A program made the position numbers and the translations under genes. A DNA stretch of 64,000 nucleotides from Gemmatimonadota bacterium (GTDB lineage Bacteria > Gemmatimonadota > Gemmatimonadetes > Gemmatimonadales > GWC2-71-9): contig JBDHIW010000001.1 of assembly GCA_039587215.1 (NCBI GenBank), positions 2,371-66,370 of the forward strand, written 5' to 3'. Shown here piece after piece: positions 20,115 through 64,000 of this stretch (positions within the stretch are counted from its first letter, which is position 1; each line of letters opens with the position of its first letter). Under the pieces are notes generated by a model. That model was not told where the DNA came from, ran no database searches, and saw only the letters and a program-made list of their open reading frames with translations.

Positions 20115-20188
<74 letters not shown>

Positions 20189-35454: not shown

Positions 35455-36612
35455 ATGACGGCAACACTCACCAATCGCGAGCTGCTCGACCGCCTGGTCG
35501 CGTTCGACACGAGCAGTGACCGCAGCAACATCCCGTTCATCGACTTCATCGCGGCCTATCTCGACGCCCCGGGGATCACCATCGCCAGGCATCCCAACGA
35601 CGACGGCTCCAAGGCCTCGCTCGTGGCGTGGGCCGGGCCACCGGTGGATCCCGACCGGCGTGACGGCCTGCTGCTCTGCGGCCACTCGGACGTCGTGCCG
35701 GCCGACCCCGAGCAGTGGCAGTCCGATCCCTTCCGGCTGACCGAGCGTGACGGGAAGCTCCTCGGCCGCGGGACCTGCGACATGAAGGGGTTCCTTGCGC
35801 TCGCGGTCAACGCCATGCGTCAGGCCGCACATGATCGGCTCGCTGCCCCTCTCGTCCTCCTCGTGACCTACGACGAGGAGCGCAATACCCAGGGGGCACG
35901 GGCGTTCGTGAACACGTGGCCCAGCGAGCGACCGCTCCCGCGCGACGTGATCGTCGGCGAACCCACCGAGCTGGAAGTCGTGCACATGCACAAGGGGATG
36001 GTCAGCATGACCCTCCGCGTGGACGGCGTCTCGGCGCACAGCGGATACCCGGCGCTCGGACGGAGCGCGATCGCGCCCGCGGCCCGCGCCGTGACCGCGA
36101 TCGCCGACTGGGGGGACGCGCTGCGGGACCGAACCCCGCCCACCTCGGCCTTCACCGAGGTTCCGTACGCCGTCGTCAACATCGGGACGATCCGCGGGGG
36201 ACGCGCGGTCAACATCGTGCCCGACCGCTGTACCCTCGGGATCAGTCTGCGCGTGCTCCCCGGCATGGATCGCTCGGCCCTCGTGGCGGAACTCGAAGAA
36301 ACGGCGGCCGCCGCGCTCGGCGACACTCCTCATGCGTTCCGCGTCGAGAGCGAGAGCCCGCCGATGGCCACCGAGGCGGACGACCCGTTCATCCGTGAGC
36401 TGCTCCAGGTGTGCGGCCGCACCACGCCGCGCGCCGTGTCGTACTCCACGGACGCCGGCTGGCTGCAAACGGTCGGGCACCGGTGCGCGATCTTCGGACC
36501 CGGATCGATCGGGGTCGCGCACGCGCCGAACGAGTACCTTCCCTCGGGAGAATTCGCGACCGCAGCGACGAGCCTGACGCGCATCATCGCGCACCGCTGC
36601 CACGCCGACTGA
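35455..36612 (+). CDS. M20-family deacylase (acetylornithine deacetylase ArgE-like)
   Basis: ATG at 35455 lies within the longer track ORF. Motifs LLLCGHSDVVPA, GRGTCDMKG and DEERNTQGA. Confidence 0.8.
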   Translation: MTATLTNRELLDRLVAFDTSSDRSNIPFIDFIAAYLDAPGITIARHPNDDGSKASLVAWAGPPVDPDRRDGLLLCGHSDVVPADPEQWQSDPFRLTERDGKLLGRGTCDMKGFLALAVNAMRQAAHDRLAAPLVLLVTYDEERNTQGARAFVNTWPSERPLPRDVIVGEPTELEVVHMHKGMVSMTLRVDGVSAHSGYPALGRSAIAPAARAVTAIADWGDALRDRTPPTSAFTEVPYAVVNIGTIRGGRAVNIVPDRCTLGISLRVLPGMDRSALVAELEETAAAALGDTPHAFRVESESPPMATEADDPFIRELLQVCGRTTPRAVSYSTDAGWLQTVGHRCAIFGPGSIGVAHAPNEYLPSGEFATAATSLTRIIAHRCHAD

Positions 36613-36646
36613 CGACGCCTTCACGTTTCACCGCGAGCACCCAACG

Positions 36647-38332
36647 ATGACTCAGCCGCTCCTCGAGTGCGTTCCCAACTTCAGCGAGGGCCGCGACCGC
36701 GCGACCATCGAACGGATCACCGACGCCATCGCCGCGGTCGACGGAGTGACGTTGCTGGACGTCGATCCGGGACAGGCCACCAACCGCACCGTGGTCACGT
36801 TCGTCGGGGCGCCCGAACCGGTGATGACCGCCGCAGTTCGGGCGGCCGCGGCGGCGCGCGATGCGATCGACATGCGCACCCATCAGGGGGAGCACCCACG
36901 CTTCGGCGCTATGGACGTCTGCCCGCTGATCCCGGTAGCCGGCGTCACCATGGACGAAGCCGCCGCGTACGCGCGCGAGCTGGGGAAGCGACTCGGCGAG
37001 GAGCTCGGCATCACCGTGTTCTGCTACGAGCACGCCGCGACGCGGCCCGAGCGTCGCAACCTCGCCGCGGTCCGGGCGGGTGAATACGAAGGCCTGCCGG
37101 ACAAGCTTGCCCGACCCGAGTGGGCTCCGGACTTCGGCCCCGCGACGTTCGACCCCGGGTTTGGGGCCGTGGCGGTGGGCGCCCGAGATTTTCTCATCGC
37201 GTACAACGTGAACCTGAACACGACGTCGACCCGGCGGGCCAACGCGATCGCGTTCGATGTGCGCGAGAAGGGCCGCATGAAGCGCTCGGGACACCCGCTC
37301 ACCGGGGAGATCGTCCGCGGAGACGACGGCGAGCCCGTGTGGATCGCGGGCAGCTTGCAATCGGTGAAGGCGATCGGGTGGTACATCGAGGAGTACGGGA
37401 TCGCCCAGATCTCGATGAACCTCACGGACATCGCGACCACGCCGCTGCACGTCGCGTTCGACGAGGTGTGCCGGAAAGCCGATGCCCGCGGGATACGGGT
37501 CACCGGTTCCGAAATCGTCGGTCTCGTGCCGCTGCGCGCCCTCGTGGAGGCCGGCGAGTACTTCCTGACCAAGCAGCAGCGGTCGTTGGGGGTCTCCGAG
37601 CGCGAGCTGATCAAAATCGCCGTGCGGTCGATGGGGTTGGACGACCTCGCCCCGTTCGAGCCCGACGAGAAGATCATCGAGTATCGGCTGCGCGACCGGG
37701 ACGCGCGCCGTCTGGTGGACCAGACCGTGCAGGCGTTCGTCGAGACCACCGCGTCCGAGGCTCCCGCGCCCGGGGGCGGGTCGGTCGCGGCGCTGGCGGG
37801 CGCGCTGGGCGCGGCGCTCGCCACCATGGTCGCCAACCTCTCGTCTCACAAGCGAGGATGGGACGACCGGTGGGAGCAGTACTCGCAGGCCGCCGTCGAG
37901 GGCAAGCGCTACGCTGAACGGCTCTTGGCGCTCGTCGACGAGGACACCGCCGCCTTCGATGCCGTCCTGGCCGCGATGCGGCTTCCCAAGGACTCGCCCG
38001 CCGACCAAGAGGCCCGGGCGGCGGCCATCGAAGCAGCGACGCAGGAGGCCACCCGCGTACCCTTCCGCGTAATGGAGGCCGCGGTGGGCTCCATGGACGT
38101 CATTCACCGCATGGCCGAATCGGGCCTGGCCTCGTCGGCCTCCGACGCCGGCGTGGGCGCCATCTGCGCGCGCGCCGCCGTGCGCGGCGCCTATCTCAAC
38201 GTCCAGATCAACGCCGCGACCCTCGCGGACCGCGCGGTGGCCGACGATCTGGTCGCGCGCGGCGCGGCCCTGACGCATGACGCGGAAGCCCGCGAACGGG
38301 CGACGCTGGCGGTGGTCGAGGGACGCATGTAG
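36647..38332 (+). CDS. ftcD: Bifunctional glutamate formimidoyltransferase / formimidoyltetrahydrofolate cyclodeaminase
   Basis: 561 aa. The N-terminus [12 protein letters not shown] is the formiminotransferase signature. The C-terminal ~200 aa form a helical cyclodeaminase-like domain ([24 protein letters not shown]). Confidence 0.85.
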
Positions 38333-38373
38333 CGGCCCCCCTCGGCCGCTCGGGGCGCCGTGTATATTCTGCC

Positions 38374-40173
38374 ATGCGTCGAGAGTACATCCGCAACTTC
38401 TGCATCGTTGCCCACATCGATCACGGCAAGTCCACCCTTGCCGATCGTCTGCTCGAGGTCACCCAGACCCTCGATCAGCGGCGCATGCGTGAACAGGTTC
38501 TCGACACCATGGACCTGGAGCGGGAGCGCGGCATTACGATCAAGCTGAACGCCGTGCGCATGGACTACGCCGCCCACGACGGACAGCGCTACGAACTCAA
38601 TCTCATCGACACGCCGGGACACGTGGACTTCACGTACGAGGTCTCCCGGTCGCTCAACGCCTGTGAGGGCGCCGTGCTCGTGGTCGACGCCGCGCAGGGC
38701 ATCGAGGCGCAGACCGTGAGCAACGTACTCCTCGCCCTCGATGCGGGGCTCGAGGTGATCCCGGTCGTGAACAAGGTCGACCTGCCCGCGGCGGAACCCG
38801 ACCGGCGTGCCGAAGAGCTGGCGGAGCTGCTCGGCGTGGACCCGACGACCGTCCTGCAGGTCTCGGCCAAGCAGGGCGTGGGCGTGGCGGAACTGCTGGA
38901 GACGATCGTCCGGCAGATTCCCGCGCCGCCCGGAGACTCGGACGCCCCCCTGCGCGCCCTGATCTTCGACTCCTATTACGACCGGTACCGCGGGGCCATC
39001 CCCTCGATCCGTGTGGTCGACGGGCGGTTGGAAGCCGGCATGACCATCGCCTTCGGCACGCACCCGGAGGACCGCTACGAGGTCGACGAAGTGGGATACC
39101 TGCAGCTCGGGCAGCAGCGCGCGGACGCCCTCGAGGCCGGCGAGGTCGGCTACGTGATCGCCAACGTGCGCGGCGTGCGGGAGACCCGGCCGGGCGATAC
39201 CGTGATCGACGCCGACCGACGGGCGGCTGAGATGCTGCCGGGGTACCGGGACGTCCACCCGATGGTGTTCGCGGGCCTGTACCCCACCGACACCGATCAG
39301 TTCGAGGAGCTACGCGACGCGCTGGAGCGTCTGCAGCTCAACGACGCCGCGCTCAAGTACGAGCCGGAGACCTCCGTCGCGCTGGGATTCGGTTTTCGGT
39401 GCGGCTTCCTCGGCCTCCTCCATATGGAGATCGTTCGGGAGCGGCTCGAGCGGGAGTTCGGTCTCGGACTCATCACGACCGTACCAAACGTGGAATACCA
39501 CGTGTACCGGACCGACGGCGAGATGCAGATCATCGAGAACCCGACGAAGATGCCGACCGGCTCGGCCGTGGATCGCATCGAGGAGCCCTACGTCACGGCG
39601 CGGATCACGGTGCCGTCGGACTACATCGGCCCGATCATGACGCTGGGACAGGAACGGCGCGGCGAGTACCACGACATGCAGTACCTCGACCCGACGCGTG
39701 TCCAGCTCGACTGGTCGTTCCCGCTCGCCGAGATCATCCTGGACTTCTTCGATCGCCTGAAGACGGTCACGCGCGGCTACGCCGCGATGGACTACGAGCC
39801 CGCGGGCTACCGGGCAAGCCAGCTCGTGAAGCTCGACATGCTCATCAACGGCGATCCGGTCGACGCGTTCTCGGTCATCATCCACCGAGACAAGGCGCAG
39901 GAGTGGGGCCGGAAGATCGCCACGAAGCTCAAAGACCTCATCCCGCGCCAGTTGTTCGAAGTCGTCATCCAGGCGGCGATCGGGACCAAGATCATCTCCC
40001 GCGAAACGGTCCGTCCATTGCGGAAGAACGTCACCGCGAAGTGTTATGGTGGTGACATCACGCGGAAGCGGAAGCTCCTCGAGAAGCAAAAAGAGGGGAA
40101 ACGCCGCATGAAGCAGGTCGGGACGGTGGAAATCCCTCAAGAGGCCTTCTTGGCCGTACTACAGGTGGACTGA
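38374..40173 (+). CDS. lepA: Elongation factor 4
   Basis: 599 aa. Motifs [32 protein letters not shown] and NKVDL, plus the conserved LepA C-terminus. Confidence 0.95.
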
Positions 40174-40175
40174 GC

Positions 40176-41177
40176 ATGGGTACGCGATACATCGTGGGCG
40201 TGGACGTCGGCGGCACGAACGTGGTCGTCGGAACGGTATCGGAGGACGGCCAGGTCATCGCCGGGATCGTCCGGGAGCCGACGCGGGTGGACGAGGGAGC
40301 CGACGCGGTGGTCGATCAGGTCGCGGCGATGGTCGCGCAGTCGATCACGGATGCCAAGGCCGAGCTCGGCGGTGACACGCTCGACGTCGTCGGCGTGGGA
40401 ATCGGCGCGCCGGGTCCGCTCGACACCGACCGGGGCATCGTGATCCTCACGCCCAACCTCGGTTGGAAGAACTTTCCTCTCCGCGACCGCGTCTCCGACG
40501 CCACCGGGCTGCCGGCGGTCCTCGACAACGACGCCAACTGCGCCGTGCTCGGCGAGTGGTGGCAGGGGGCGGCCCAGGGCGCCTCCAACGTCATCGGTCT
40601 CACGATCGGGACGGGCATCGGGGGCGGCATCGTGATCGGCGGCATGCTCTATCGCGGGGCGAGCGACGTCGCGGGCGAGTTCGGCCACATGACCATCGAT
40701 TCCACCGGGCGCCGGTGCAACTGCGGGAACTACGGCTGCATCGAAGCGTACGCGTCCGGCACGGCGATCGCGGCGCGGGCGGTGGAAGGCATCGACGCCG
40801 GTGCCGACACGAATCTCCCCGACCTGGTCGACGGCGACACGTCGAAGATCACGGCCGGGACGGTCTATCACGCCGCCAGCGACGGGGACGAGTTCGCCCG
40901 GGAGGTCATCCGGGATACGGCACGGTTCCTCGGTGCGGCGGTCGCCAACCTCGTGAACATCTTCAATCCCGACATCGTCGTGATCTGCGGCGGGGTGACG
41001 GCGGCGGGCGACAAGCTCTTCACGCCGCTCGAGGCCGAGGTGGCTCGGCGGGCCTTCCGCCCGGCCGTGGCCGCCTGCCGCATCATTCCCGGAACGCTCC
41101 ACGGGACGGCCGGCGTGTTCGGCGCCGCCGCCGTCTTTCGGCGGCGGGCCGCAGGCAGATTCACCAACCCCGAGTGA
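40176..41177 (+). CDS. ROK-family glucokinase
   Basis: 333 aa. VGVDVGGTNVVVG is the ATP-binding motif, and GRRCNCGNYGCIEAYASG is the ROK zinc motif. Confidence 0.85.
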   Translation: MGTRYIVGVDVGGTNVVVGTVSEDGQVIAGIVREPTRVDEGADAVVDQVAAMVAQSITDAKAELGGDTLDVVGVGIGAPGPLDTDRGIVILTPNLGWKNFPLRDRVSDATGLPAVLDNDANCAVLGEWWQGAAQGASNVIGLTIGTGIGGGIVIGGMLYRGASDVAGEFGHMTIDSTGRRCNCGNYGCIEAYASGTAIAARAVEGIDAGADTNLPDLVDGDTSKITAGTVYHAASDGDEFAREVIRDTARFLGAAVANLVNIFNPDIVVICGGVTAAGDKLFTPLEAEVARRAFRPAVAACRIIPGTLHGTAGVFGAAAVFRRRAAGRFTNPE

Positions 41178-42121
41178 AGCGGCTGGGCGTCATCGGTACG
41201 ATGGTGTGGGACACCATCTACCGGGTGGGACGCGACGAGCCGGTCGAGGAGTGGGGCGGCATCGCGTACGCGATCGCGGCACTCGACGCCGCACTTCCCC
41301 CCGAGTGGGAGATCGTCCCGCTCGTGAAGGTGGGTCGCGATCTAGCACCCGAAGCCAACCAGTTCCTGTCCGCCATGCAGCGTCCGGTGTCGGGCGCGCG
41401 CTTCATCGAGGTGCCGGAGCCGACCAACCGCGTCACGCTGCGCTACCGGTCGCTGGAGCGCCGCACCGAGCACCTCGCAGGCGGCGTGCCCGGATGGCAG
41501 TGGACGGAGCTCGGCCCGCTCGTCCACGATCTCGACGCCATCTACTGCAACCTCATCTCCGGGTTCGAGCTCGACCTTCCGACGGCGATCCACCTCCGGC
41601 ACGGGTTCGACGGACCTGTGTATGCCGACCTCCACTCGCTACTCCTCGGCCTGCGGGCCGACGGCACCCGTGTGCCCCGCGCCCTGCCCGACGTGGATGA
41701 GTGGTTCGGCTGCTTCGACGTCGTCCAACTGAACGAGGGGGAGATGGCGCTGCTCGGCGCCGACCCGCTGGCCGTCGCGGCGGACGCCTTCGGCGCCGGC
41801 GTGCGTCTCATGGTCGTGACCCTGGCCGCCCAGGGGGCCGCCTACTTCGTGCACGGCGACCTCGACCTGCACGCCGACCGCACCCTGCCGGTGGGAGCGC
41901 CCCTGCGGACCGCGCGGCTCCCCGCACACGACGCCCGCGACGTCCTCGACCCCACAGGGTGCGGCGATGTCTTCGGCGCGACGCTCATGGCGGCCCTGCT
42001 CCAGCGGGCGGACGTGGAAGCCGGCATCGACGTCGCCCAGCGAGCCGCCGCCCGCAACGCGGGGCACCTCGGAGCCACGCACTTGCGCGCACATCTACGC
42101 GGCGAGATTCTGCATCGGTGA
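41174..42121 (+). CDS. PfkB-family carbohydrate/nucleoside kinase
   Basis: GTG at 41174 overlaps the ROK stop (GTGA). The C-terminal motif DPTGCGDVFGATLMAALL is the PfkB DTxGAGD-type signature. Confidence 0.75.
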   Translation: MKRLGVIGTMVWDTIYRVGRDEPVEEWGGIAYAIAALDAALPPEWEIVPLVKVGRDLAPEANQFLSAMQRPVSGARFIEVPEPTNRVTLRYRSLERRTEHLAGGVPGWQWTELGPLVHDLDAIYCNLISGFELDLPTAIHLRHGFDGPVYADLHSLLLGLRADGTRVPRALPDVDEWFGCFDVVQLNEGEMALLGADPLAVAADAFGAGVRLMVVTLAAQGAAYFVHGDLDLHADRTLPVGAPLRTARLPAHDARDVLDPTGCGDVFGATLMAALLQRADVEAGIDVAQRAAARNAGHLGATHLRAHLRGEILHR

Positions 42122-43005
42122 CCCAAGTCGTAGAAGTCCCCAGTTCCTTCGACGATCGGACGTTCGACCAGTTCGCGCGCGGCATCGCCTCGTGGGACGA
42201 GAAGCTCCTGTTCGACGCCCACGCCACCCAGTGGGCGTCGCCGTTCGGGCTGGTGGGACTGCTGACCGCGGGCCAGCACGCGACCGAGCGGGCGCAGCAG
42301 CGGCCTCTGCTTACGATCCCGGCGGATCGGGACGTCGCGCATTACTGGGCCAAGGCGGGGTTCTTCCGCTATGCGGGGGATTGGTTCGAGCTCCACGGCA
42401 AGGTCCCGCGCGTCGCCGCGTCCGAGACCTCCGACGTTCTCCTCGGGGTCACACCCGTCCGCGGCACGGACGACGTGCACTCCGTCGTGGAGACCATTCA
42501 AGAGCGCGCAGCAGCCATTCTGGGGGATCTGGGGCTCGAGGCTACGGCGACAATGGGATTCGCTATGGCATTGTCGGAGGCGTGTCAGAATATTGTAGAA
42601 CACGCGGGCACGTCGGGCTGGGTCGCCGTGCAGACCTACCACTGGCGAAGACGACTCGGTCGCAAGGTCGTGGTGATCGCCGTCGCCGATGCCGGCGTCG
42701 GGTTCCGGCACTCCCTCGCGGCCACACAGGCATCGCGCTTCGGTGATCGGTGGAGCGACGCGACTGCCCTCGAATCCGCGTTGTTTCACGGCGCGAGCCG
42801 CTTCCGTGACCCCGGTCGAGGCCAGGGACTGGCCGGGATCACGCGCTACGCCAATCGGTGGGGCGGTAAGGTGAGTATGCGGTCCGGTACCGCACGGATT
42901 GCGATTGTCCCAGAGTGGGACGACGACGCGCCGCTGACCGATGGCGTGCCGGCGTTCCCGGGAGCCCAAGTGCTGATCATCATTCCCGCACAGGACGCCG
43001 AGTGA
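42118..43005 (+). CDS. GHKL (HATPase_c, RsbW/SpoIIAB-like) ATP-binding protein with extra N-terminal domain
   Basis: GTG at 42118 overlaps the PfkB stop (GTGA). 295 aa. N-box-like LSEACQNIVEHA, G1-like VADAGVGF, G2-like GRGQGLAGI. There is no DHp/His-phosphotransfer helix. The N-terminal ~125 aa are unassigned. Confidence 0.7.
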   Translation: MTQVVEVPSSFDDRTFDQFARGIASWDEKLLFDAHATQWASPFGLVGLLTAGQHATERAQQRPLLTIPADRDVAHYWAKAGFFRYAGDWFELHGKVPRVAASETSDVLLGVTPVRGTDDVHSVVETIQERAAAILGDLGLEATATMGFAMALSEACQNIVEHAGTSGWVAVQTYHWRRRLGRKVVVIAVADAGVGFRHSLAATQASRFGDRWSDATALESALFHGASRFRDPGRGQGLAGITRYANRWGGKVSMRSGTARIAIVPEWDDDAPLTDGVPAFPGAQVLIIIPAQDAE

Positions 43006-43009
43006 GCCA

Positions 43010-43540
43010 ATGACGACGATCGATGTAAAGCAGGTGTTGGCTCGCACGGTCTCACCCACCTATCCCGACCTCGTTACTCGCCCAACCGGCAAAGCCGTCC
43101 GCCACGGCATCGTCGACGAACTCGACGACGCTGCCGCCGTGGAGGATGTGGCCCTGATCGACTTCGGCACCGTGCGCGTACTCGATATTTCGTGCGCCGA
43201 CGAGATCGTGGCGCGCCTGCTCCGGGAGAACAATGCGCGGTACTTCGTGCTCTGTGGCCTCACCGAGGCGCATCGCTACTCGATCGAGCAGGTGCTGGAA
43301 CGCCACCAGCTGGCGGTCGTCGGACGCGACCGGGACGGCCGGGTCCAGGTGCTCGGCACGGTCACCGACACGGTGCGGCGGGCGTTCGGACTGCTCGCGG
43401 ACCGCGGACGGGCCGCCCCGCACGAGATCGCCGCGCATCTCGGCGTGCCGCAGGACGCCGCCCTCGAGACCATTCAGGAGATGGTGACGCTTCGAATCGC
43501 GCACCCGGTTGACGACCTCGTGGCGATTCCAGCCTCATGA
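43010..43540 (+). CDS. STAS-like (DUF4325-like) protein with C-terminal winged-helix-like segment
   Basis: 176 aa starting 4 nt after the upstream stop. TRPTGKAVRHGIVDELDDAAAVEDVALIDFGTVRVLDISCADEIVARLL follows the DUF4325 pattern (xLDFxGVxxxSxSFxDE). The C-terminal APHEIAAHLGVPQDAALETIQEMV looks like HTH. Confidence 0.6.
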   Translation: MTTIDVKQVLARTVSPTYPDLVTRPTGKAVRHGIVDELDDAAAVEDVALIDFGTVRVLDISCADEIVARLLRENNARYFVLCGLTEAHRYSIEQVLERHQLAVVGRDRDGRVQVLGTVTDTVRRAFGLLADRGRAAPHEIAAHLGVPQDAALETIQEMVTLRIAHPVDDLVAIPAS

Positions 43541-44697
43541 CGTCGCGATCGAGCGGGCCATCGACCCGAGCCGTGCACGGGCCGGTCCACCCGCGGACCG
43601 ACCATGAGCCGGTGGCGACGCCCCTGAGCCAAAGCAGCACGTTCGTACACCCGATCGGCTCGAGCGCCGAGGTGATGTACACCCGGTACGGCAACAACCC
43701 GAACCAGGTGATTCTCGCCGAGAAGCTGGCGCTGCTGGAGGGCGCGGAACGCGCCCTGTTCGTCGCGAGCGGCATGGGCGCGACCGCCCTCGCGCACCTC
43801 GCGGTCCTACGGCCGGGCGACCACCTGCTCGCGAGCAGCTGGATCTACGGAGGAACCCACCGGCTCTTCACCGACGAGTTCGGGCGGATCGGCATCGACG
43901 TCACGTTCGTCAACCCCGACAAGCACCGCGACTGGCGCCGCATGGTGCGCAAGAACACTCGGGCGCTCTTCGTCGAGTCCCCGACCAACCCCCTCATGCG
44001 CGTGATCGACCTCGAACCGCTGGCCGAGCTGTGCCGCGAGCGGGGCATGGTCATGATCGTGGACTCCACCTTCGCGTCCCCGATCAACCTGCGTCCCCTC
44101 GAGCACGGGGCCGATGTCGTCATCCACTCCGCCACCAAGTACCTGAACGGGCACTCCGATGTGATCGGCGGCAGCGTGGCGGGCAGCGCCGCCATCGTCG
44201 AGGAAGTCCGTTCCCTCATGCAGGTCTGGGGGCAGTCCGCCGACCCCCATGCCGCCTGGCTCACGGAGCGGGGACTCAAGACGCTCGCCGTGCGTATGGA
44301 ACGGCACAATGCCAACGGGCAGGCCTTCGCCGAATGGGCCGAGGCCCAGCCCGCCATCACCAAGGTGGATTATCCCGGACTCCCGAGTCATCCCGACCAC
44401 GCGCTGGCCACGAAGATGCTCGATGGGATGAGCGGCATGGTCGGTATCCATCTCCCCAGCGCGATCGCGGCCGAGAAGTTCCTGCAACGGCTGCAGCTGG
44501 TGACGCACGCACCGAGTTTGGGCGGGGTCGAGACGCTGATCTCCGAGCCGCGCCTCACGTCGCATGCGGGGCTGACGCCCGACGAGCGGGCCAGCGCCGG
44601 CATGCCCGACGGTTTCGTGCGGGTCAGTCTCGGCATCGAGGACATCGACGACGTGATCGCCGACTGCGACGCGGCGCTCCGCTCTCTCACCGCGTGA
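43537..44697 (+). CDS. Cys/Met-metabolism PLP enzyme (cystathionine gamma-synthase / beta-lyase / methionine gamma-lyase family)
   Basis: 386 aa with ATGA overlap to the upstream gene. HSATKYLNGHSDVIGG contains the PLP lysine motif. The subfamily cannot be decided by eye. Confidence 0.88.
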   Translation: MTSRSSGPSTRAVHGPVHPRTDHEPVATPLSQSSTFVHPIGSSAEVMYTRYGNNPNQVILAEKLALLEGAERALFVASGMGATALAHLAVLRPGDHLLASSWIYGGTHRLFTDEFGRIGIDVTFVNPDKHRDWRRMVRKNTRALFVESPTNPLMRVIDLEPLAELCRERGMVMIVDSTFASPINLRPLEHGADVVIHSATKYLNGHSDVIGGSVAGSAAIVEEVRSLMQVWGQSADPHAAWLTERGLKTLAVRMERHNANGQAFAEWAEAQPAITKVDYPGLPSHPDHALATKMLDGMSGMVGIHLPSAIAAEKFLQRLQLVTHAPSLGGVETLISEPRLTSHAGLTPDERASAGMPDGFVRVSLGIEDIDDVIADCDAALRSLTA

Positions 44698-45383
44698 TCC
44701 AGTTCCGCAAAGTCTTCAAAGCGTACCCCAAGGGTTCCATCGCCCTGAAGGACGTGTCGTTCCGCATGGAGAAGAGTGAGTTCCTTTTCCTGACGGGTCA
44801 CTCGGGCGCGGGCAAGTCCACCGTCCTCCGGCTCGTCTACGCAGACGAATCGCCGAGCGACGGCGACGTGCTCGTCGCGGGGCGGCTCCTCTCGCATCTC
44901 AAGCACAGCGAGATCCCGCAGCTGCGCCGGCGCCTGGGCATCGTCTTCCAGGATTTCCGGCTCCTGGAAGACCGTACGGCGGAGGAGAACGTCGCGTTCG
45001 CCCTCGAGGTGACCGGTACGCGCCCAAGTATCGTGGCGTCCAAGGTGATGCGGGTGCTGACGCAGGTCGGTCTCGCGGCCAAGACGCACCTCTACCCTCA
45101 GGAGATGTCGGGTGGCGAGCAGCAGCGCGTCGCCATCGCGCGGGCGCTGGTCAACGACCCCGTCGTACTCCTCGCCGACGAACCGACCGGGAACCTGGAC
45201 GAACGGGCGACGCGCGGCGTCTTCCGCCTGCTGCGGGACATCAACGCGACCGGGACCGCCGTGGTGATGGCAACGCATGACCTGGATCTCGTGCGCTCGA
45301 CGTCGTATCGGACGATCGAACTCCGCGACGGCGCCGTGGTGCACGATTCGGGCGCCAGGGACTCGCTCGGGGAGGCCTCGTGA
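44694..45383 (+). CDS. ftsE: Cell-division ABC transporter ATP-binding protein FtsE
   Basis: GTG at 44694 (GTGA overlap). Walker A GHSGAGKST, signature MSGGEQQRVAIARAL, Walker B VLLADEPTGNLD. ftsX follows. Confidence 0.92.
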   Translation: MIQFRKVFKAYPKGSIALKDVSFRMEKSEFLFLTGHSGAGKSTVLRLVYADESPSDGDVLVAGRLLSHLKHSEIPQLRRRLGIVFQDFRLLEDRTAEENVAFALEVTGTRPSIVASKVMRVLTQVGLAAKTHLYPQEMSGGEQQRVAIARALVNDPVVLLADEPTGNLDERATRGVFRLLRDINATGTAVVMATHDLDLVRSTSYRTIELRDGAVVHDSGARDSLGEAS

Positions 45384-46237
45384 GGCTGACGATCCGCGAG
45401 ACCATCCTCGCCATCACCCGGACCCCGGTCCTGTCCGCGCTCGCGAGCATCACCATCGGCTTCGCGCTCTTCGTGCTCGGACTGTTCGCGCTGGTCGCGC
45501 TGAACCTGCGGGAGGCGCTGACGACCATCGAGGAACGCGTGGAGATCGTGGCGTACCTCACGCGGGGCACGCCGATCGAGGTGATCACCCTCGCGATCGG
45601 AGACATCCAGGCCTTCCCGGAGGTCGCCTCGGTTCGGCACGTGTCGGCGGACGAGGCGCTCGATCGTGCCCGCGGGCAGCTGACCGAGTTTCAGGGCGTG
45701 TTCGAAGACCTGGCAATGAACCCGCTGCCGGCCTCGTTGGAGCTTCGCCTCCAGCCCGGGTCGCGCGACGCGGGCGTCGTCGCCATCGTCGCCGAGCGCC
45801 TCGAGGGATTCCGGTTCGTCGAGGACGTGCGCTTCGGACGAGAATGGATCGAAAAGCTCGACGATCTCCGCAACATCGCCGCCGTGGTGGGTCTCGCGAT
45901 CGGCGGTGCGTTCATGGCCGCCGCCACGATCATCATCGGCACGACGGTTCGCATGACCGTGCTCGCGCGCGCGCGCGAAATCCAGATCATGCGGCTCGTT
46001 GGGGCCACCGACGGATTCGTCAGGCGTCCGTTCCTGCTCGACGGAGCCATCAAGGGCGCCCTAGGCGGGCTGTTCGCGCTCGCGCTGAACTACCTCGCGT
46101 TCCTCATGGTGCAGAATTCCCTCTTCGAAGCCCGGTTCTTCGCCATGACGCACGCGTCGGCCTTCGTGCTCTTCGGCCTCGGGGTCGGCCTCGCGGCGAG
46201 CGCCCTCAGCGTCGGGCGGCACCTCTCGAAGATCTGA
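45380..46237 (+). CDS. ftsX: Cell-division permease-like protein FtsX
   Basis: 285 aa with GTGA overlap to ftsE. One TM, a periplasmic domain and three C-terminal TMs. The sequence MRLVGATDGFVRRPFLLDG is conserved in FtsX. Confidence 0.85.
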   Translation: MRLTIRETILAITRTPVLSALASITIGFALFVLGLFALVALNLREALTTIEERVEIVAYLTRGTPIEVITLAIGDIQAFPEVASVRHVSADEALDRARGQLTEFQGVFEDLAMNPLPASLELRLQPGSRDAGVVAIVAERLEGFRFVEDVRFGREWIEKLDDLRNIAAVVGLAIGGAFMAAATIIIGTTVRMTVLARAREIQIMRLVGATDGFVRRPFLLDGAIKGALGGLFALALNYLAFLMVQNSLFEARFFAMTHASAFVLFGLGVGLAASALSVGRHLSKI

Positions 46238-47442
46238 TGCGCTGGCGCGGCTGGCTGGTCGTCGTGCTGCTCACCGCGACGGGAGCGGCGGAGGCGCAGC
46301 AGGGGCCGTCCGTCGTGCGGCAGATCCGCGAGAACCAACAGCGCCTCGATTCGATACGGAGAGAACGCGAGGGTCTCGAGGGAGAGCTCCAGCAGCTGCG
46401 CTCTCGGATGTCGACGCTGTCCAGCGAGCTCGACAACATCGAGCGGCAGAAGACGATCACGGCCCGCATCGTGAACGAGCTCGACCGTCAGACACTGGGG
46501 ATGCGCAGCCAGGTCGACACCGTGACCCTGCAGCTTCTCGTGGCCACGGACGCCCTCGCGGAATCCCAGGCCGTACTGCGGGGCCGGCTCGTGGGGATCT
46601 ACAAGCGAGGGCCCCTCTACGCGTTTCAGGTACTCCTGGCGGCCGAGAGCTTCGGCGATCTCCTGAGTCGGTATAAGTACCTCTACCTCGTCTCCCGACA
46701 GGACCGCGCGCTGGTGCAGGAAGTCGTCGACCTCCGCGATCGCATCGGCAGCAATCGCCGGCAGCTCGTGAGCATCGAGCGCACCATCGAGAGCCAGCGG
46801 GACCAGCGATCACGGGAACTGCGACGTTACGAATCGCTGGAGCGGTCGTCGTCCCGCGCGCTGCAGCAGGCGCAGGCCACGCAGCGGCAGACGTCGTCGC
46901 GCATCGCCAATCTGTCCGCGGCGGAAGAGGAACTGGTCGGCCTGCTCGCAGCGCTCGAGCGCGCCCGGCGCGCCGCGCTCGCGCGCGGAGACCTTCGCGT
47001 GCCCGAAGCTAGCATCACGGGCGCCGACCTCGGCCAGCTCGACTGGCCCGTCGACGGTGGCCGAGTGGTCTACAGCTTCGGATCCGCGCGCGGCCCCGAC
47101 GGCACGGAGATCATCTACCAGGGCATCGGCATCGGCGTGCCGGTCGGTACCGCGGTCACGGCAGTCGCGGACGGCCTCGTGGAGATCGCGAGCCCACTCA
47201 ACACCTACGGCCCCTCGGTCTTGCTCAACCACGGCGGGGGCGTGTACACGCTCTACTCCTACCTGTCGACGATCGCCGTCACGCCTGGCCAACTCGTGAG
47301 CGTCGGCCAAACCCTCGGGCAGTCCGGGGGCGAGTCGTCCGACCACGGCCCTCACATCGAGTTCCAGTTGCGACAGGCCTCCGGCGAGAGCAACAACCCC
47401 ATTGCGCTCGACCCGGAGAACTGGCTCAGACGCCGACGGTAG
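46237..47442 (+). CDS. envC: EnvC-like murein hydrolase activator (coiled coil + degenerate LytM/M23 domain)
   Basis: ATG at 46237 overlaps the ftsX stop (TGATG). Signal peptide, a ~250-aa coiled coil, and a C-terminal M23 fold. The usual HxH reads PHIEFQL, with the second His replaced, as in non-catalytic EnvC-type activators. Confidence 0.85.
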   Translation: MRWRGWLVVVLLTATGAAEAQQGPSVVRQIRENQQRLDSIRREREGLEGELQQLRSRMSTLSSELDNIERQKTITARIVNELDRQTLGMRSQVDTVTLQLLVATDALAESQAVLRGRLVGIYKRGPLYAFQVLLAAESFGDLLSRYKYLYLVSRQDRALVQEVVDLRDRIGSNRRQLVSIERTIESQRDQRSRELRRYESLERSSSRALQQAQATQRQTSSRIANLSAAEEELVGLLAALERARRAALARGDLRVPEASITGADLGQLDWPVDGGRVVYSFGSARGPDGTEIIYQGIGIGVPVGTAVTAVADGLVEIASPLNTYGPSVLLNHGGGVYTLYSYLSTIAVTPGQLVSVGQTLGQSGGESSDHGPHIEFQLRQASGESNNPIALDPENWLRRRR

Positions 47443-47480
47443 CTCCACCAGTCAAACTCCTGTCGTTGCTTGCCGTTTTC

Positions 47481-47508
47481 ATACGATCGTATTACATACA
47501 AACGTATG
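47481..47508. promoter_or_regulatory. Two ATAC-N4-GTAT palindromes (putative TetR operator pair)
   Basis: ATACGATCGTAT (47481-47492) is a perfect 12-bp palindrome. cATACAAACGTATg (47495-47508) has the same half-sites and spacing, 15 bp centre to centre. Both lie in an AT-rich patch, and the second overlaps the tetR ATG (47506). Confidence 0.4.
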
Positions 47509-48117
47509 AATGATTCCGAGACGAAGACCCGCCTCATCCAGGCCGCCATCCGGCTGTTCGCGGTCCACGGCTACGAGGGAACCTCGATCCGCGCCATCAC
47601 CCGCGAGGCCAACGCCAACCTCGGGGCCGTGACGTACCACTTCGGTTCCAAGGCCGCGCTGTTCGAAGCCGCGCTCGCCGAGGTCGTTGGGCCGTTCCGC
47701 GAACGGATCGCAGCCGAGGCGAACCAAGCGGGGCCGCCGCTCGATCGCGTCGCCGGCATCGTCCGAACGTTCTTCGAGCACTTCGCCGAGCACCCCGTAA
47801 TCCCGCAGCTCATCCTGCACGTCCTGGCATCGCCGCAGCACATGCCGGAACCGGTGCGGTCCGGGCTCGCGGCCAACCACGCTGCACTCGCCCGCGTGAT
47901 CGCGGAGGGGCAGCAGGGGGGCACGATTCGCCCTGGGGACGCCCGGCTCATGGCGCTCAGCATCGCGGCGCAACCCGTCATGCTGGCCCTCATGCGGCAC
48001 GTCCTGAGCCAGGCCATCGGGCTGGATCAGGACGACCGCGCGACCCGCACCGCACTCACCGAGAGCGTCGCAGCGTTCGCCCGCGCCGGACTGGCGGCCA
48101 CCGGAGACCCGTCATGA
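47506..48117 (+). CDS. TetR/AcrR-family transcriptional regulator
   Basis: Start at MNDSETKTRLIQAAIRLFAVHGYEGTSIRAITREANANLGAVTYHFGSK, the canonical TetR HTH. The track ORF starts at TTG 47470. Confidence 0.88.
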   Translation: MNDSETKTRLIQAAIRLFAVHGYEGTSIRAITREANANLGAVTYHFGSKAALFEAALAEVVGPFRERIAAEANQAGPPLDRVAGIVRTFFEHFAEHPVIPQLILHVLASPQHMPEPVRSGLAANHAALARVIAEGQQGGTIRPGDARLMALSIAAQPVMLALMRHVLSQAIGLDQDDRATRTALTESVAAFARAGLAATGDPS

Positions 48118-49454
48118 CCCCGACACACTCGACCGTTGCGTGGCTCTGCCTCGTGTTGGGTTCCTCTGCGACCCCCCTCGGGGCACAGGCCCCACCCGTC
48201 TCGATCGCCGACGCGGCGCGGGCGGCGCTCGCCACCCATCCGGAGGCGCGGGCGGCGCAGGCGGCGCAGGCGGCCGCCGATGCAGGCGTTCGCGTTGCCA
48301 CGGCCGAGCGTTGGCCGGCCCTCCAGGCCGAGGGGTCGGTCTTCCGGTTTCAGGAGCCCATGGTCGTCTTCCCGCTCCACGCGTTCGATCCGTCGCAGCT
48401 CACCTTCGACCGCACACTCGTCCAAGGTGCGCTCACGCTCGGCTATACCGTGTTCGACGGAGGCGCGCGGGGCGCGGCAGTACGCGGGGCACGGGCGAAC
48501 GCCGATGGGGTCACCGCCCGACGGGCCTCCGCCGACGCGCGTCTCATCACCGAGGTGGCGCACACGTATCTCCGCGCCCTCACGGCCCGGGAGGAACTCG
48601 ATGCGCTTGCACAGCGCCTCGACGCCGTCGAAGCGGAGCGCGAACGCGCGGCCCTCCTCGCCGCCGAAGGGGCGGCGGCCCAGGTGGACGCGCTGCGTGC
48701 CGAGGCCGCGCGCGAACAGACCATGGCCGAGCGGGCCCGCGCCACGGCCGACCTCGACGCCGCGCTGCGGGACCTCGCCCGCCTGATGGGCGCCGAGGGT
48801 ACCGCGATCGGGCCGGGCGCCCTTCGCCGGCCGAACACACCCCCCGACACGCCCGACCGCGCCGCCCTGCTGCAACGGTTGGCGGCTGCCAACCCGGACC
48901 TGCTCCGCGCGGAGCAACGCTCGAACGCCGCGGCATGGCGCAGCCGCGCCGCACGGGGCGCGTGGTTCCCCACGATCGACGTGCTCGGCCGGTACACGCT
49001 CTACGGCAGCGGGAGTAGTGGTTTCACCGGAGAGTGGCAAGGGGGCCTCAAGGTTTCGTACCCGCTCTTCGCCGGCGGCCGCCGCCCACGCGCCATCGAC
49101 CGGGCGCAGGCCGAGGCTCAGGCGGCCGCGGCCGAGGCCGACGCGGTTCACCTCGGTATCGCCCGCGCGCTCGACCGGACCTACGCGGCGCTCGCGGAAA
49201 CCGGCCCACGCATTCGGGCGCTGGAATCGGCTGAACGCCATCTGATGGAGATCACCCGCATCGAACGCCTGACGCTCGAGGAAGGGGCGGGCACCCAAGC
49301 CGAGTACCTGCGGGCCGAAGCCGATCTCGGGGAGGCACGCGCCGCGCTTGCCCGCGCGCGCTACACACAGCTCCGACTGCACGTCGAACTCGCCGCGCTC
49401 ACGGGCCGACTCACCGTCGAGTGGCTCGCGGCGTTAGCAGACACGGACCGATGA
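48114..49454 (+). CDS. TolC-family outer-membrane efflux protein
   Basis: 446 aa with ATGA overlap to tetR. Signal peptide and two repeated helical/beta halves rich in Ala/Arg/Glu heptads, typical of OEP/TolC. Confidence 0.85.
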   Translation: MTPTHSTVAWLCLVLGSSATPLGAQAPPVSIADAARAALATHPEARAAQAAQAAADAGVRVATAERWPALQAEGSVFRFQEPMVVFPLHAFDPSQLTFDRTLVQGALTLGYTVFDGGARGAAVRGARANADGVTARRASADARLITEVAHTYLRALTAREELDALAQRLDAVEAERERAALLAAEGAAAQVDALRAEAAREQTMAERARATADLDAALRDLARLMGAEGTAIGPGALRRPNTPPDTPDRAALLQRLAAANPDLLRAEQRSNAAAWRSRAARGAWFPTIDVLGRYTLYGSGSSGFTGEWQGGLKVSYPLFAGGRRPRAIDRAQAEAQAAAAEADAVHLGIARALDRTYAALAETGPRIRALESAERHLMEITRIERLTLEEGAGTQAEYLRAEADLGEARAALARARYTQLRLHVELAALTGRLTVEWLAALADTDR

Positions 49455-63262: not shown

Positions 63263-63459
63263 CGCGCGCCTGCCGCGCGGGACAGCAGCGCCCCGAGCTC
63301 CCGGTAATAGCGGGCGTCCTCCTCACGATCTTCCTGCTCCATCGCGAGGGCCGTACGCTCGAGCGCGTAGAGAATGGGAACGAGGTGCTCGGACGCGACC
63401 GACGCGAGCGGAGCGTCGTCGGGCGCCGACTCCGTCTCAGCCGGTCGGTTGGCCGCCAT
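63259..63459 (-). CDS. Small hypothetical protein downstream of the PP2C gene
   Basis: 66 aa. It overlaps the PP2C 3' end by 23 nt and the convergent HD gene by 4 nt (CTAG). GC3-rich codons, acidic/helical sequence. No family recognised, so this is a weak call. Confidence 0.35.
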   Translation of the reverse strand: MAANRPAETESAPDDAPLASVASEHLVPILYALERTALAMEQEDREEDARYYRELGALLSRAAGAR

Positions 63460-64000
63460 CGCTGACCTCGACGGTGTCGATGCGAACGACGATGACGGTC
63501 ACGTTGTCCAAACCGCCGCGGCGGTTTGCCTCGGCCACCAATGCATCGACCAGTGCACCCGGCGAGGGCTGAGCCACCATGATCGACAGCACTTCGTCGT
63601 CCTCGAGCATACCCGTGAGGCCATCGGACGCCAGGAGGAACACGTCCCCCTCATGCAGCGTCCCGATGTACGTGTCGGGAGCCACATCGGCGTTGGCGCC
63701 GACGCAGCGGGTGATCACGTTGCTGTACGGATGCGTGCGGGCCTGCTGGGGCGTGAGGTATCCCGCGTCCACCTGCTCCTGCACGTAGGAGTGGTCCTTC
63801 GTCAGCTGAAGCAGTTGGTCTTCCCGCAGCACGTACGCGCGGCTGTCACCAACCTGCCCGATGATGTAGTGGGGTCCGTTGACGATCATCGCGGTCGTCG
63901 TGGTCCCCATGCCGCGCTTCTCTTCTTCGACCAGCGTGCGGCGGAAGATCTCGCCGTTCGCCTCGATGATGGCGTCACGGATCACGACGGCTGCTTCATC
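63437..64000 (-). CDS. PP2C-family Ser/Thr protein phosphatase, C-terminal part (N-terminus beyond window)
   Basis: The frame stays open to position 64000. Motifs MGTTTTAMIV, IGQVGDSRAY, LLASDGLTGML and GGLDNVTVIVV are the classic PP2C motifs. Confidence 0.85.
   Translation of the reverse strand, partial: DEAAVVIRDAIIEANGEIFRRTLVEEEKRGMGTTTTAMIVNGPHYIIGQVGDSRAYVLREDQLLQLTKDHSYVQEQVDAGYLTPQQARTHPYSNVITRCVGANADVAPDTYIGTLHEGDVFLLASDGLTGMLEDDEVLSIMVAQPSPGALVDALVAEANRRGGLDNVTVIVVRIDTVEVSDGGQPTG

Follow-up and report, generated by a model that had tools for sequence, protein, structure and literature searches.

A chromosomal STAS-GHKL ATPase and its STAS-winged-helix partner in Gemmatimonadota as probable relatives of the CapK/CapS and VapK/VapS kinase-substrate pairs

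In a 64,000-nucleotide stretch of DNA from a Gemmatimonadota bacterium (GenBank assembly GCA_039587215.1, contig JBDHIW010000001.1, positions 2,371 to 66,370 of the forward strand; this whole stretch is referred to here as the window), a gene for a GHKL-type ATPase and a gene for a STAS-like protein with a C-terminal winged helix are embedded in a string of housekeeping genes, which raises the question of what such a pair may sense and control. The ATPase gene (42118-43005, + strand, GTG start, 295 residues) is followed after a spacer of 4 nt by the partner gene (43010-43540, + strand, 176 residues). Both open reading frames were confirmed as real, as were the GTGA overlaps upstream and the translational coupling downstream that had been described in an earlier reading of the DNA (the sequence-only reading), and the GTG start of the ATPase is backed by an MT(R/Q)VVEVP N-terminus conserved among orthologs. 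Profile comparisons make it very probable that the pair is homologous to the CapK/CapS family, and we favour, with some reserve, the explanation that it is a chromosomal member of the CapK/CapS (VapK/VapS) family devoid of a helix-turn-helix (HTH) domain, in which a Ser kinase, probably activated by single-stranded DNA (ssDNA), would phosphorylate Ser61 of its partner.

The sequence-only reading knew of no characterised example of this architecture, a statement now superseded by the publication in 2026 of CapK/CapS and VapK/VapS, which obey the same logic (Chambers, Rani, Min, Villa and Corbett, EMBO J 2026;45:5079; PMC13373217; PDB 9Z71-9Z73, and 9Z7O for VapK/VapS/VapC). CapK, composed of HTH, STAS and GHKL domains, is activated by ssDNA of ~20 nt, for which W68 is required and for which K237 and K239 are predicted contacts, and it phosphorylates the STAS-winged helix-turn-helix (wHTH) repressor CapS at Ser54 in a reaction that needs both ATP and ssDNA (PMC13373217). 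Upon phosphorylation the CapS dimer dissociates and the downstream immune operon is de-repressed; a CapS S54E variant is monomeric and its DNA binding is abolished (PMC13373217). The CapS operator is a "wide palindrome" overlapping the -10 element, and restriction-modification (RM) systems adjoin capKS (PMC13373217). Deletion of the CapK HTH has no effect and VapK is naturally without one; VapK (STAS-GHKL, key residue F54) and VapS (Ser48) exert the same control logic over the toxin VapC. VapS binds VapC by its STAS surface, the acceptor Ser lying buried between the two proteins, and phosphorylation frees the bound protein (PMC13373217). Gemmatimonadota, recA-linked loci and DUF4325 receive no mention in that work, and its vapKSC dataset contains a few Nitrospira and Kuenenia entries (PMC13373217).

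The sequences of CapK, CapS, VapK and VapS used for comparison were taken from the source data of that publication. When a profile built from diverse members of the ATPase family (A3) was aligned to CapK by hhalign, a match of 98.3% probability (E 1.3e-14) was obtained over 266 columns covering the STAS and GHKL domains and CapK residues 67-361, and the corresponding alignment to VapK gave 95.8% probability (E 6.7e-9) over 244 columns. For the partner, a cross-phylum profile (A8) matched an alignment of the CapS family (A7) over both domains (hhalign probability 98.45%, E 3.9e-15) and matched the solved CapS chains 9Z72 and 9Z73 at E 5e-10 and 9Z71 at E 1.9e-8; its match to VapS was weak (probability 23%). 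At the level of single residues, Ser61 of the partner (codon 43190-43192, + strand, within the motif D-I-S-C-A-D-E) aligns with Ser54 of CapS and Ser58 of V. cholerae CapS, an experimentally proven phospho-acceptor (PMC13373217), and D59 and E65 align with D52 and E58 of CapS. The Ser of this motif, which the sequence-only reading had already singled out as a candidate acceptor, was found to be invariant across phyla (34 cross-phylum partner sequences). In the kinase, N158 (codon 42589-42591, + strand) aligns with the catalytic N218 of CapK, W39 (codon 42232-42234, + strand) and P42 with F54 and P57 of VapK, and H175, R177, R182 and K183 with K237, K239, R240 and R241 of CapK. Besides the homology of both proteins and their domains, the catalytic Asn, the acceptor Ser and the gene order are conserved, as apparently are the positions predicted to contact ssDNA, whereas kinase activity, the ssDNA signal and the effect of phosphorylation are inferred for the pair from this homology.

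The extent of the likeness differs between the two published systems. CapK/CapS resemble the window pair in having a kinase-then-substrate gene order, a STAS plus GHKL kinase and a STAS plus winged-helix substrate, and have in common with it an acceptor Ser at the start of STAS helix 2, a catalytic Asn and a basic hairpin at the predicted ssDNA site. However, CapK possesses an N-terminal HTH whereas the window kinase begins directly at STAS strand 1, and CapK/CapS occur sporadically, upstream of an anti-phage immune operon, whereas the window pair is chromosomal, is kept in each of three further Gemmatimonadota loci that were compared and is located inside an overlapping ROK-PfkB-...-PLP-FtsEX-EnvC string (PLP, pyridoxal phosphate) that is free of intergenic promoters and of palindromes of the TTAA or any other type. 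VapK in turn is identical in architecture to the window kinase (STAS-GHKL, no HTH) and has, like it, an aromatic residue before the Pro of STAS helix 2; both systems include a DUF4325-like STAS partner with an acceptor Ser, and the WAS41PFG segment of the window kinase resembles FAS48PFF of VapS. VapS differs from the window partner in ending in a short C-terminal helix instead of a 58-residue winged-helix domain, and the third gene of that system encodes the PIN-domain toxin VapC, whereas the third gene in the window encodes a Cys/Met PLP enzyme and a gene for a PIN/VapC toxin is lacking.

The N-terminal ~125 residues of the kinase, left unassigned by the sequence-only reading, contain what is, by profile and model comparison, a STAS domain (residues ~1-100, 42118-42420, + strand, including F11, W39, S41-P42 and a YWAKAGFF motif). 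This assignment is made because profile A3 matched the SpoIIAA-like STAS chain 4hyl over positions 4-97 (E 2.4e-6), because Foldseek superposed the N-terminal part of the kinase on the RsbV chains of 6m36/6m37 over 84 columns (root-mean-square deviation, rmsd, 2-2.7 A; template-modelling score, TM, ~0.6), and because NCBI names a truncated member of the ATPase family "STAS domain-containing protein". Within this domain, Ser41 (codon 42238-42240; WAS41PFG) occupies the position of the VapS acceptor Ser (FAS48PFF); the Gemmatimonadota have Ser at this position, whereas Asp is found in most relatives from other phyla (F-x-D-P-x-G) and Arg in VapK. A role of Ser41 as an autophosphorylation or phosphomimic site was considered and set aside, since the Ser/Asp/Arg pattern is equally explained by helix N-capping.

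The remainder of the kinase forms a GHKL ATP-binding domain of the SpoIIAB/RsbW type (42460-43005, + strand) with an N-box (E154/N158), a G1 box (D191-G195), a G2 box (G233-L238) and the basic hairpin H175-K183. It exceeds the Pfam cut-offs for HATPase_c_2 (30.8 bits, cut-off 27.4) and HATPase_c (30.1 bits, cut-off 26.4), and no HisKA domain was found in the Pfam scan, in agreement with the RsbW/SpoIIAB-like core without a His-phosphotransfer domain that had been noticed from the letters. The elements E154/N158, D191xGxG and G233xGxGL are invariant among orthologs, as is W39. The AlphaFold2 (AF2) model of the ATPase (predicted local distance difference test, pLDDT, 84.7) resembles the CheA P4 domain, SpoIIAB and RsbW.

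This resemblance bears on classical partner switching, according to which the GHKL protein would be an anti-sigma factor that sequesters a sigma factor from another locus, with the STAS protein as its antagonist. SpoIIAB/SpoIIAA and RsbW/RsbV likewise consist of a GHKL Ser kinase of the HATPase_c_2 type, which is also the best Pfam match of the window kinase, and a STAS protein with its acceptor Ser at the N-terminus of helix 2, and the pair has structural matches to SpoIIAB (1tid) and to RsbW/RsbV complexes (entries matched: 1tid, 6m36, 6m37 and 6jhk). The NCBIfam models RsbA and RsbW also matched weakly, but their scores of 21.6 and 15.7 bits lie far under the cut-offs of 210 and 145; moreover, the window kinase has a STAS domain of its own and its substrate a winged helix, no sigma factor takes part in the action of CapK and VapK, the closest characterised relatives, and no sigma-factor gene adjoins the pair among the ~90 loci examined, so that partner switching in its classical form is considered very unlikely. 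Neither a sigma-factor gene nor a PP2C gene is adjacent to the pair in the window or in related loci, and the description of the locus as a minimal two-gene module of a kinase-like GHKL protein and a STAS-wHTH protein, without a sigma factor, was upheld.

GHKL folds include non-kinase ATPases, and the window protein could in principle be an ATP-driven clamp or a chaperone-type ATPase acting with the wHTH protein on nucleic acid. Foldseek does list GyrB and Hsp90, at a low probability (<=0.5) and with high rmsd, and the PADLOC model DrmA (PDLC02567) matches residues 100-264 of the ATPase with positions 95-248 of its 1750-position model. The latter was the only PADLOC result for the pair, no system match being returned, and it was rejected as an indication of DISARM since it is a domain-level GHKL match. 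Considering that the protein agrees with the kinases SpoIIAB, RsbW and CapK both in its lid motif (GxSRF..GRGxGL) and in its overall profile, and that the acceptor Ser of the partner is invariant, a non-kinase function is regarded as extremely improbable.

The AF2 model of the partner (pLDDT 94.4, predicted TM score 0.89) contains an alpha/beta domain at residues 1-116, which matches the STAS protein RsbS at a TM of 0.51 and in which the helix carrying Ser61 begins at residue 60, followed by a winged helix (residues ~119-176, 43364-43537, + strand; pLDDT ~97). The three helices of the latter (residues 120-172) gave MarR-type Foldseek matches with an rmsd of ~1.4 A, and the winged helix proposed for the C-terminus is consequently well supported as a fold. 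The top Foldseek match of the whole partner, Csa3 (CARF plus wHTH), was discarded: at a TM of 0.3 and an rmsd of 10.6 A it reflects a common two-domain layout and not a credible kinship. The DUF4325 pattern attributed to the N-terminal half held in part. The window protein itself has no Pfam DUF4325 match at E<=1, giving only weak HTH matches in Pfam and none in NCBIfam or PADLOC, whereas 35 of 40 partner orthologs match DUF4325 below threshold (best 1.2e-4), and the gathering cut-off of 23 bits is attained by cross-phylum orthologs (26.4, 24.0 and 23.1 bits). DUF4325 (PF14213), whose gathering score is thus reached by orthologs from a Clostridia-type metagenome-assembled genome (MAG) and from Nitrospirota, has the pattern LVTRxxG..R ... 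DF..V...D.S.ADE in common with the partner, and CapS itself does not match this family either. The partner STAS motifs DLVTRPTG, IDF and D.SCADE are invariant.

In the favoured explanation, a nucleic-acid ligand, most likely ssDNA, would bind in a groove between the STAS and GHKL domains of the kinase, where W39 and possibly F11 (STAS) and the basic hairpin H175-K183 (GHKL) would contact it, and would thereby switch the kinase on. The activated kinase would phosphorylate Ser61 at the start of helix 2 in the STAS-like domain of the partner, and this modification would change what the partner is bound to. The sensing of sugar or energy status, which the sequence-only reading had suggested, is unsupported: the characterised relatives sense ssDNA, and the residues predicted to contact it appear to be conserved here.

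Several observations weigh against this explanation, and they concern family membership, the ligand site and the output. The family membership of the partner is based on transitive, family-level profiles: a Gemmatimonadota-only profile (A1) matched a single CapS sequence with a probability of only 26.6%, a hidden Markov model (HMM) of CapS sequences alone gave 0.4 bits for the window partner, which is to say that it was not detected, and a PDB search with a Gemmatimonadota-only profile placed CapS 9Z71 at E 0.71, a cross-phylum alignment being needed for a clear match. An HMM of non-Gemmatimonadota partners scored 96 bits on the window partner, and those partners in turn reached up to 62.8 bits against CapS. 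Because it is barely scored by the CapS model and is reached through the cross-phylum partners, the window partner is regarded as a remote member of the CapS family connected by a transitive link. As to the ligand site, hhalign places W68 of CapK opposite residue 10 of the window kinase, which is non-aromatic and lies next to F11, and it is from F54 of VapK that a counterpart of the ssDNA-stacking residue is deduced; in the wider ATPase family the W39 position is occupied by Phe and the S41 position by Asp, which are differences of detail.

As to the output, no phosphatase gene was found near the pair, and neither recA, cinA, rmuC, a dinG-like gene, recX nor lexA was found in the window or in two long Gemmatimonadota contigs carrying the pair (L001 and L002; loci outside the window are designated by L numbers). 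A scan of 36000-48500 revealed no sigma-70-like promoter, no terminator on the + strand and no intergenic operator region, a palindrome of the TTCAATTGAA type (<=1 mismatch) is absent from the 64-kb window, and no promoter-like or palindromic site was detected inside or around the ROK-to-EnvC string. In addition, the winged helix of the partner looks probably unfit for DNA binding. CapS and the Nitrospirota and Clostridia partners have in common the motif N-[TA]-S-x-T-R-L...L in the recognition helix and GG..[FW].Y in the wing, both of which are lost in Gemmatimonadota partners. In the window partner the recognition helix VPQDAALETIQEMVTLR has a net charge of -2, with the N-T-S-x-T-R-L motif lost, and the C-terminal domain a net charge of -3, whereas in other chromosomal partners the recognition helix ranges from +1 to +4 and the C-terminal domain from -2 to +8, all but one being positive, and the CapS means are +1.8 and +1.0, respectively. 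In several orthologs from Gemmatimonadota the C-terminus is degenerate, while the kinase and the STAS motifs of the partner stay invariant.

Because the motif is lost, the helix is acidic and intergenic DNA is lacking, local repression by DNA binding is unlikely in the window. The proposal that the STAS-like protein serves as its own DNA-binding output thus stands for the family, as exemplified by CapS, and is doubtful for this protein, which has an acidic recognition helix and no operator. The same observations bear on the model of the sequence-only reading as a whole, in which a STAS-wHTH DNA-binding regulator, controlled by the kinase according to sugar or energy status, would govern the flanking sugar-kinase, envelope and division genes. 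Such a regulator would have a precedent in CapS, a DNA-binding repressor under phosphorylation control (PMC13373217), the wHTH fold is present, and the pair is conserved beside ROK-PfkB; however, the family motif is gone from an acidic recognition helix, the string has neither intergenic nor promoter-like nor palindromic sites, and nothing ties the kinase to sugars, the residues at its sensor position matching the predicted ssDNA contacts of CapK and VapK. This model is accordingly judged distinctly improbable.

Action through the STAS surface, or on a target elsewhere in the genome, is more probable for the partner than local repression. A specific form of such action would be a VapS-like protein switch, in which the partner STAS domain would hold a protein that is freed when Ser61 is phosphorylated, the kinase step being as in the favoured explanation; the candidates are the translationally coupled products, namely PfkB and ROK upstream and the Cys/Met PLP enzyme and FtsE downstream. 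VapS does bind VapC in this way, via a STAS surface that buries the acceptor Ser (PMC13373217), and the winged helix of the Gemmatimonadota partners is acidic, varies among orthologs and has in some of them degenerated, whereas the STAS motifs are invariant. The 4-nt overlaps with both neighbours would fit co-translated partners, and ROK-PfkB-kinase-partner is common to Gemmatimonadales and a Longimicrobiales-like contig. Yet the protein partner is putative, the PLP-FtsEX genes are not kept in the latter contig (L088), and a winged-helix fold is still predicted with a pLDDT of ~97, which points to some constraint on this domain. A protein switch of this kind is considered rather unlikely. For the favoured CapK/CapS-type explanation as a whole, the output of the partner in this genome is the weakest step.

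Considering the genes around the pair, a very long gap-free string extends on the + strand from an FTCD-like gene (start 36647) through LepA (38374-40173) to an EnvC-like M23 protein (~46234-47442), with 4-nt overlaps at most junctions in a window of ~69% GC. It continues after LepA with a ROK kinase (40176-41177) and a PfkB-family kinase (41174-42121), both assigned by Pfam and both conserved in their place upstream of the pair in Gemmatimonadota, and, 3' of the pair, with the Cys/Met PLP enzyme (43537-44697), FtsE (44694-45383) and FtsX (45380-46237). From ROK to EnvC the junctions are 4-nt overlaps, being GTGA for ROK/PfkB (41174-41177), PfkB/ATPase (42118-42121) and PLP/FtsE (44694-44697), ATGA for partner/PLP enzyme (43537-43540), and located at 45380-45383 for FtsE/FtsX and at ~46234 for FtsX/EnvC; short gaps occur solely between LepA and ROK (2 nt) and between kinase and partner (4 nt).

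The order LepA-ROK-PfkB-ATPase-partner-PLP-FtsE-FtsX-M23 is the same in L001 and L002 as in the window, while in L088 ROK-PfkB-ATPase-partner is kept and followed by a convergent gene, the downstream PLP-FtsEX not being kept. The L088 ATPase is 51% identical to the window ATPase and falls into a cluster at 90% identity that carries the NCBI label Longimicrobiales. ROK-PfkB-kinase-partner is therefore taken as a conserved core in the phylum, whereas PLP-FtsEX-EnvC is linked to the pair in only part of Gemmatimonadota. Absence of the pair from the string of its relatives had been named beforehand as an outcome that would speak against the module; the pair is instead kept after ROK-PfkB in all three of these loci. 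Kinase-then-partner order is found in all four Gemmatimonadota loci (the window and these three). The label "orphan" is correct insofar as no sigma or PP2C gene is adjacent, and incorrect insofar as the pair is conserved in the three Gemmatimonadota loci and recurs in Nitrospirota, Clostridia and other groups.

A database search with the ATPase gave 4298 matches at E<=1e-3, of which the best 120 are 71-94% identical and mostly unnamed, the named ones being Gemmatimonadota MAGs. For the partner there are 342 matches, with 50-60% identity, which often share a contig with an ATPase match, and those that are named are likewise Gemmatimonadota MAGs. A search among 1.84 billion cluster representatives retrieved 1241 ATPase-family clusters at E<=1e-3, the family remaining full-length (~290-310 residues) down to ~29% identity, with members in Deltaproteobacteria and Clostridia MAGs. 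In a scan of GTDB species genomes, at least 554 ATPase relatives were confirmed, which are distributed over Nitrospirota, anammox Planctomycetota, Clostridia, Thermodesulfobacteriota, Nitrospinota and others. The loci of relatives were found with a 7-sequence alignment (A6). By means of an HMM built from Gemmatimonadota partners alone, a partner homologue was detected in 27 of 80 fetched non-Gemmatimonadota loci, always 3' of the ATPase on the same strand and at a distance of 69-3675 nt; where the full 4 kb of downstream sequence was available, the hand count was 23 of 53 loci. No partner was detected by the partner HMMs within 4 kb downstream in 53 of the 80 loci, among them all anammox Planctomycetota, and it may be located farther away or be absent in these. 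In L003 the partner is found 4.5 kb 3' of the ATPase, and in L004 the ATPase gene is followed by one for a zinc-ribbon protein instead of a partner.

The genes that follow the partner on the same strand in other phyla are frequently those of DNA repair, recombination or replication. In Clostridia-type MAGs the partner is followed by recA-recX after a gap of 19-25 nt, with SbcD/SbcC-like genes next at least in L006; in six Nitrospirota loci it is followed by (pgpA-)cinA-ligT-recA, in five loci by (sixA-)rmuC and in two by a DinG-like helicase gene. A uvrD gene, a class II ribonucleotide reductase gene and a PHP-domain gene are each found 3' of the partner in one locus, and in L003 an AddA-like helicase-nuclease is encoded two genes 3' of the partner, after an ABC_ATPase gene. 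Examples of repair-linked loci are L006:9509-13445, L044:5752-8828, L073:6549-7847, L026:6126-8513, L074:4631-6193 and L024:5786-8119. In the Nitrospiraceae locus L043 (6335-6778), the gene right after that of a full-length STAS-wHTH partner encodes a PIN (VapC-like) protein, an arrangement that looks intermediate between CapKS and VapKSC.

Of 79 non-Gemmatimonadota loci that were scanned (L008-L087 without L011, together with L003 and L004, two being too near a contig end for the consensus), 61 contain shortly 3' of the ATPase gene a promoter-like unit, CTTGACAAA-N13-TATGA, followed at once by a 19-bp palindrome, TTCAATTGA-W-TCAATTGAA. The unit occurs in Nitrospirota, Planctomycetota and other phyla (for instance L026:5230-5298, L079:4163-4231 and L013:4871-4939); the palindrome is not present in the Clostridia-type loci. 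Such a layout would be expected of an operator that covers the -10 element, as does the "wide palindrome" of CapS, and the unit represents a candidate operator of the CapS-like repressor. In many Planctomycetota and Nitrospirota loci the unit is followed by RM genes. Such genes were seen 3' of the kinase in L013, L014, L018, L028, L050, L059 and L072, being located between kinase and partner in L028 and L050, and include those for an Eco57I-like type IIG enzyme, N4/N6 methyltransferases and a TdeIII endonuclease, an echo of the RM systems beside capKS (PMC13373217).

The repair-gene context of the relatives fits a DNA-damage signal and suggests an SOS-like regulator and regulon that have not yet been described. 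ssDNA is also the signal of the SOS response. As in LexA/RecA control, a repressor-like gene is situated directly upstream of recA, recX, rmuC, a dinG-like gene or uvrD in the Nitrospirota and Clostridia-type relatives, and in Nitrospirota and Planctomycetota, though not in the Clostridia-type loci, the promoter in front of these genes is overlapped by the palindrome; in contrast to LexA/RecA control, the relatives have no autocleaving repressor of the LexA type, and the proposed switch would be phosphorylation. The analogy is limited to the non-Gemmatimonadota relatives, the window having neither such repair genes nor the palindrome.

A wider reading, offered tentatively as less likely than not, is that CapK/CapS includes an ancient, hitherto undescribed "housekeeping" branch on the chromosome, of which the pair is a member. 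In Nitrospirota, Clostridia-type and related lineages this branch may serve as an ssDNA-sensing regulator of the DNA-damage response that operates by phosphorylation, a LexA-independent, SOS-like switch, whereas the Gemmatimonadota would have kept the kinase nearly unchanged and rewired the substrate. In this branch a Nitrospirota-type operator, CTTGACA-N17-TATGAT overlapping TTCAATTGAWTCAATTGAA, would drive recA, cinA-recA, rmuC, a dinG-like gene, uvrD and sometimes inserted restriction-modification cassettes. The Gemmatimonadota substrate would have lost DNA binding and would couple ssDNA or DNA damage to a protein target among ROK-PfkB or PLP-FtsEX-EnvC, for example in cell separation.

The window indicates that the CapK/CapS-type logic, described in 2026 for the control of mobile anti-phage operons, also exists as a core chromosomal pair. 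If the wider reading is true, the immune regulators would be derived from, or be sisters of, a general regulator of the DNA-damage response, a testable candidate for SOS-type control would be available in little-studied phyla, and the Gemmatimonadota would represent a natural case of a phospho-switch with a changed function of its output domain. With respect to the annotation of these genomes, "ATP-binding protein / anti-sigma regulatory factor" can be replaced by CapK/VapK-like kinase and "hypothetical protein" by CapS-like substrate.

Some further features were observed. In Thermodesulfovibrionia (L019, L023, L026, L042, L043, L056, L063, L073 and L086) the kinase gene is located directly 3' of lysS-lolC/E-lolD, genes named by sequence resemblance, and the window kinase is three genes upstream of ftsE-ftsX; lolC/E-lolD and FtsEX are both ABC systems of the FtsX/MacB type, which may be a coincidence. 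A gene for a TetR-family regulator (47470-48117) lies 3' of EnvC in the window, and its counterpart in L002 is followed by genes for an OEP, a membrane-fusion protein and ABC efflux components. A fragment of a PP2C-like Ser/Thr phosphatase gene (63437-64000, - strand), cut by the window end and seen as a translated motif alone (RGMGTTTTAMIV, GMGTT...), is located 20 kb from the pair on the opposite strand, and a link to the pair was found in none of the related loci. The sole RNA gene found in the window is a tRNA-Ile (GAT) gene at 20115-20188 (- strand).

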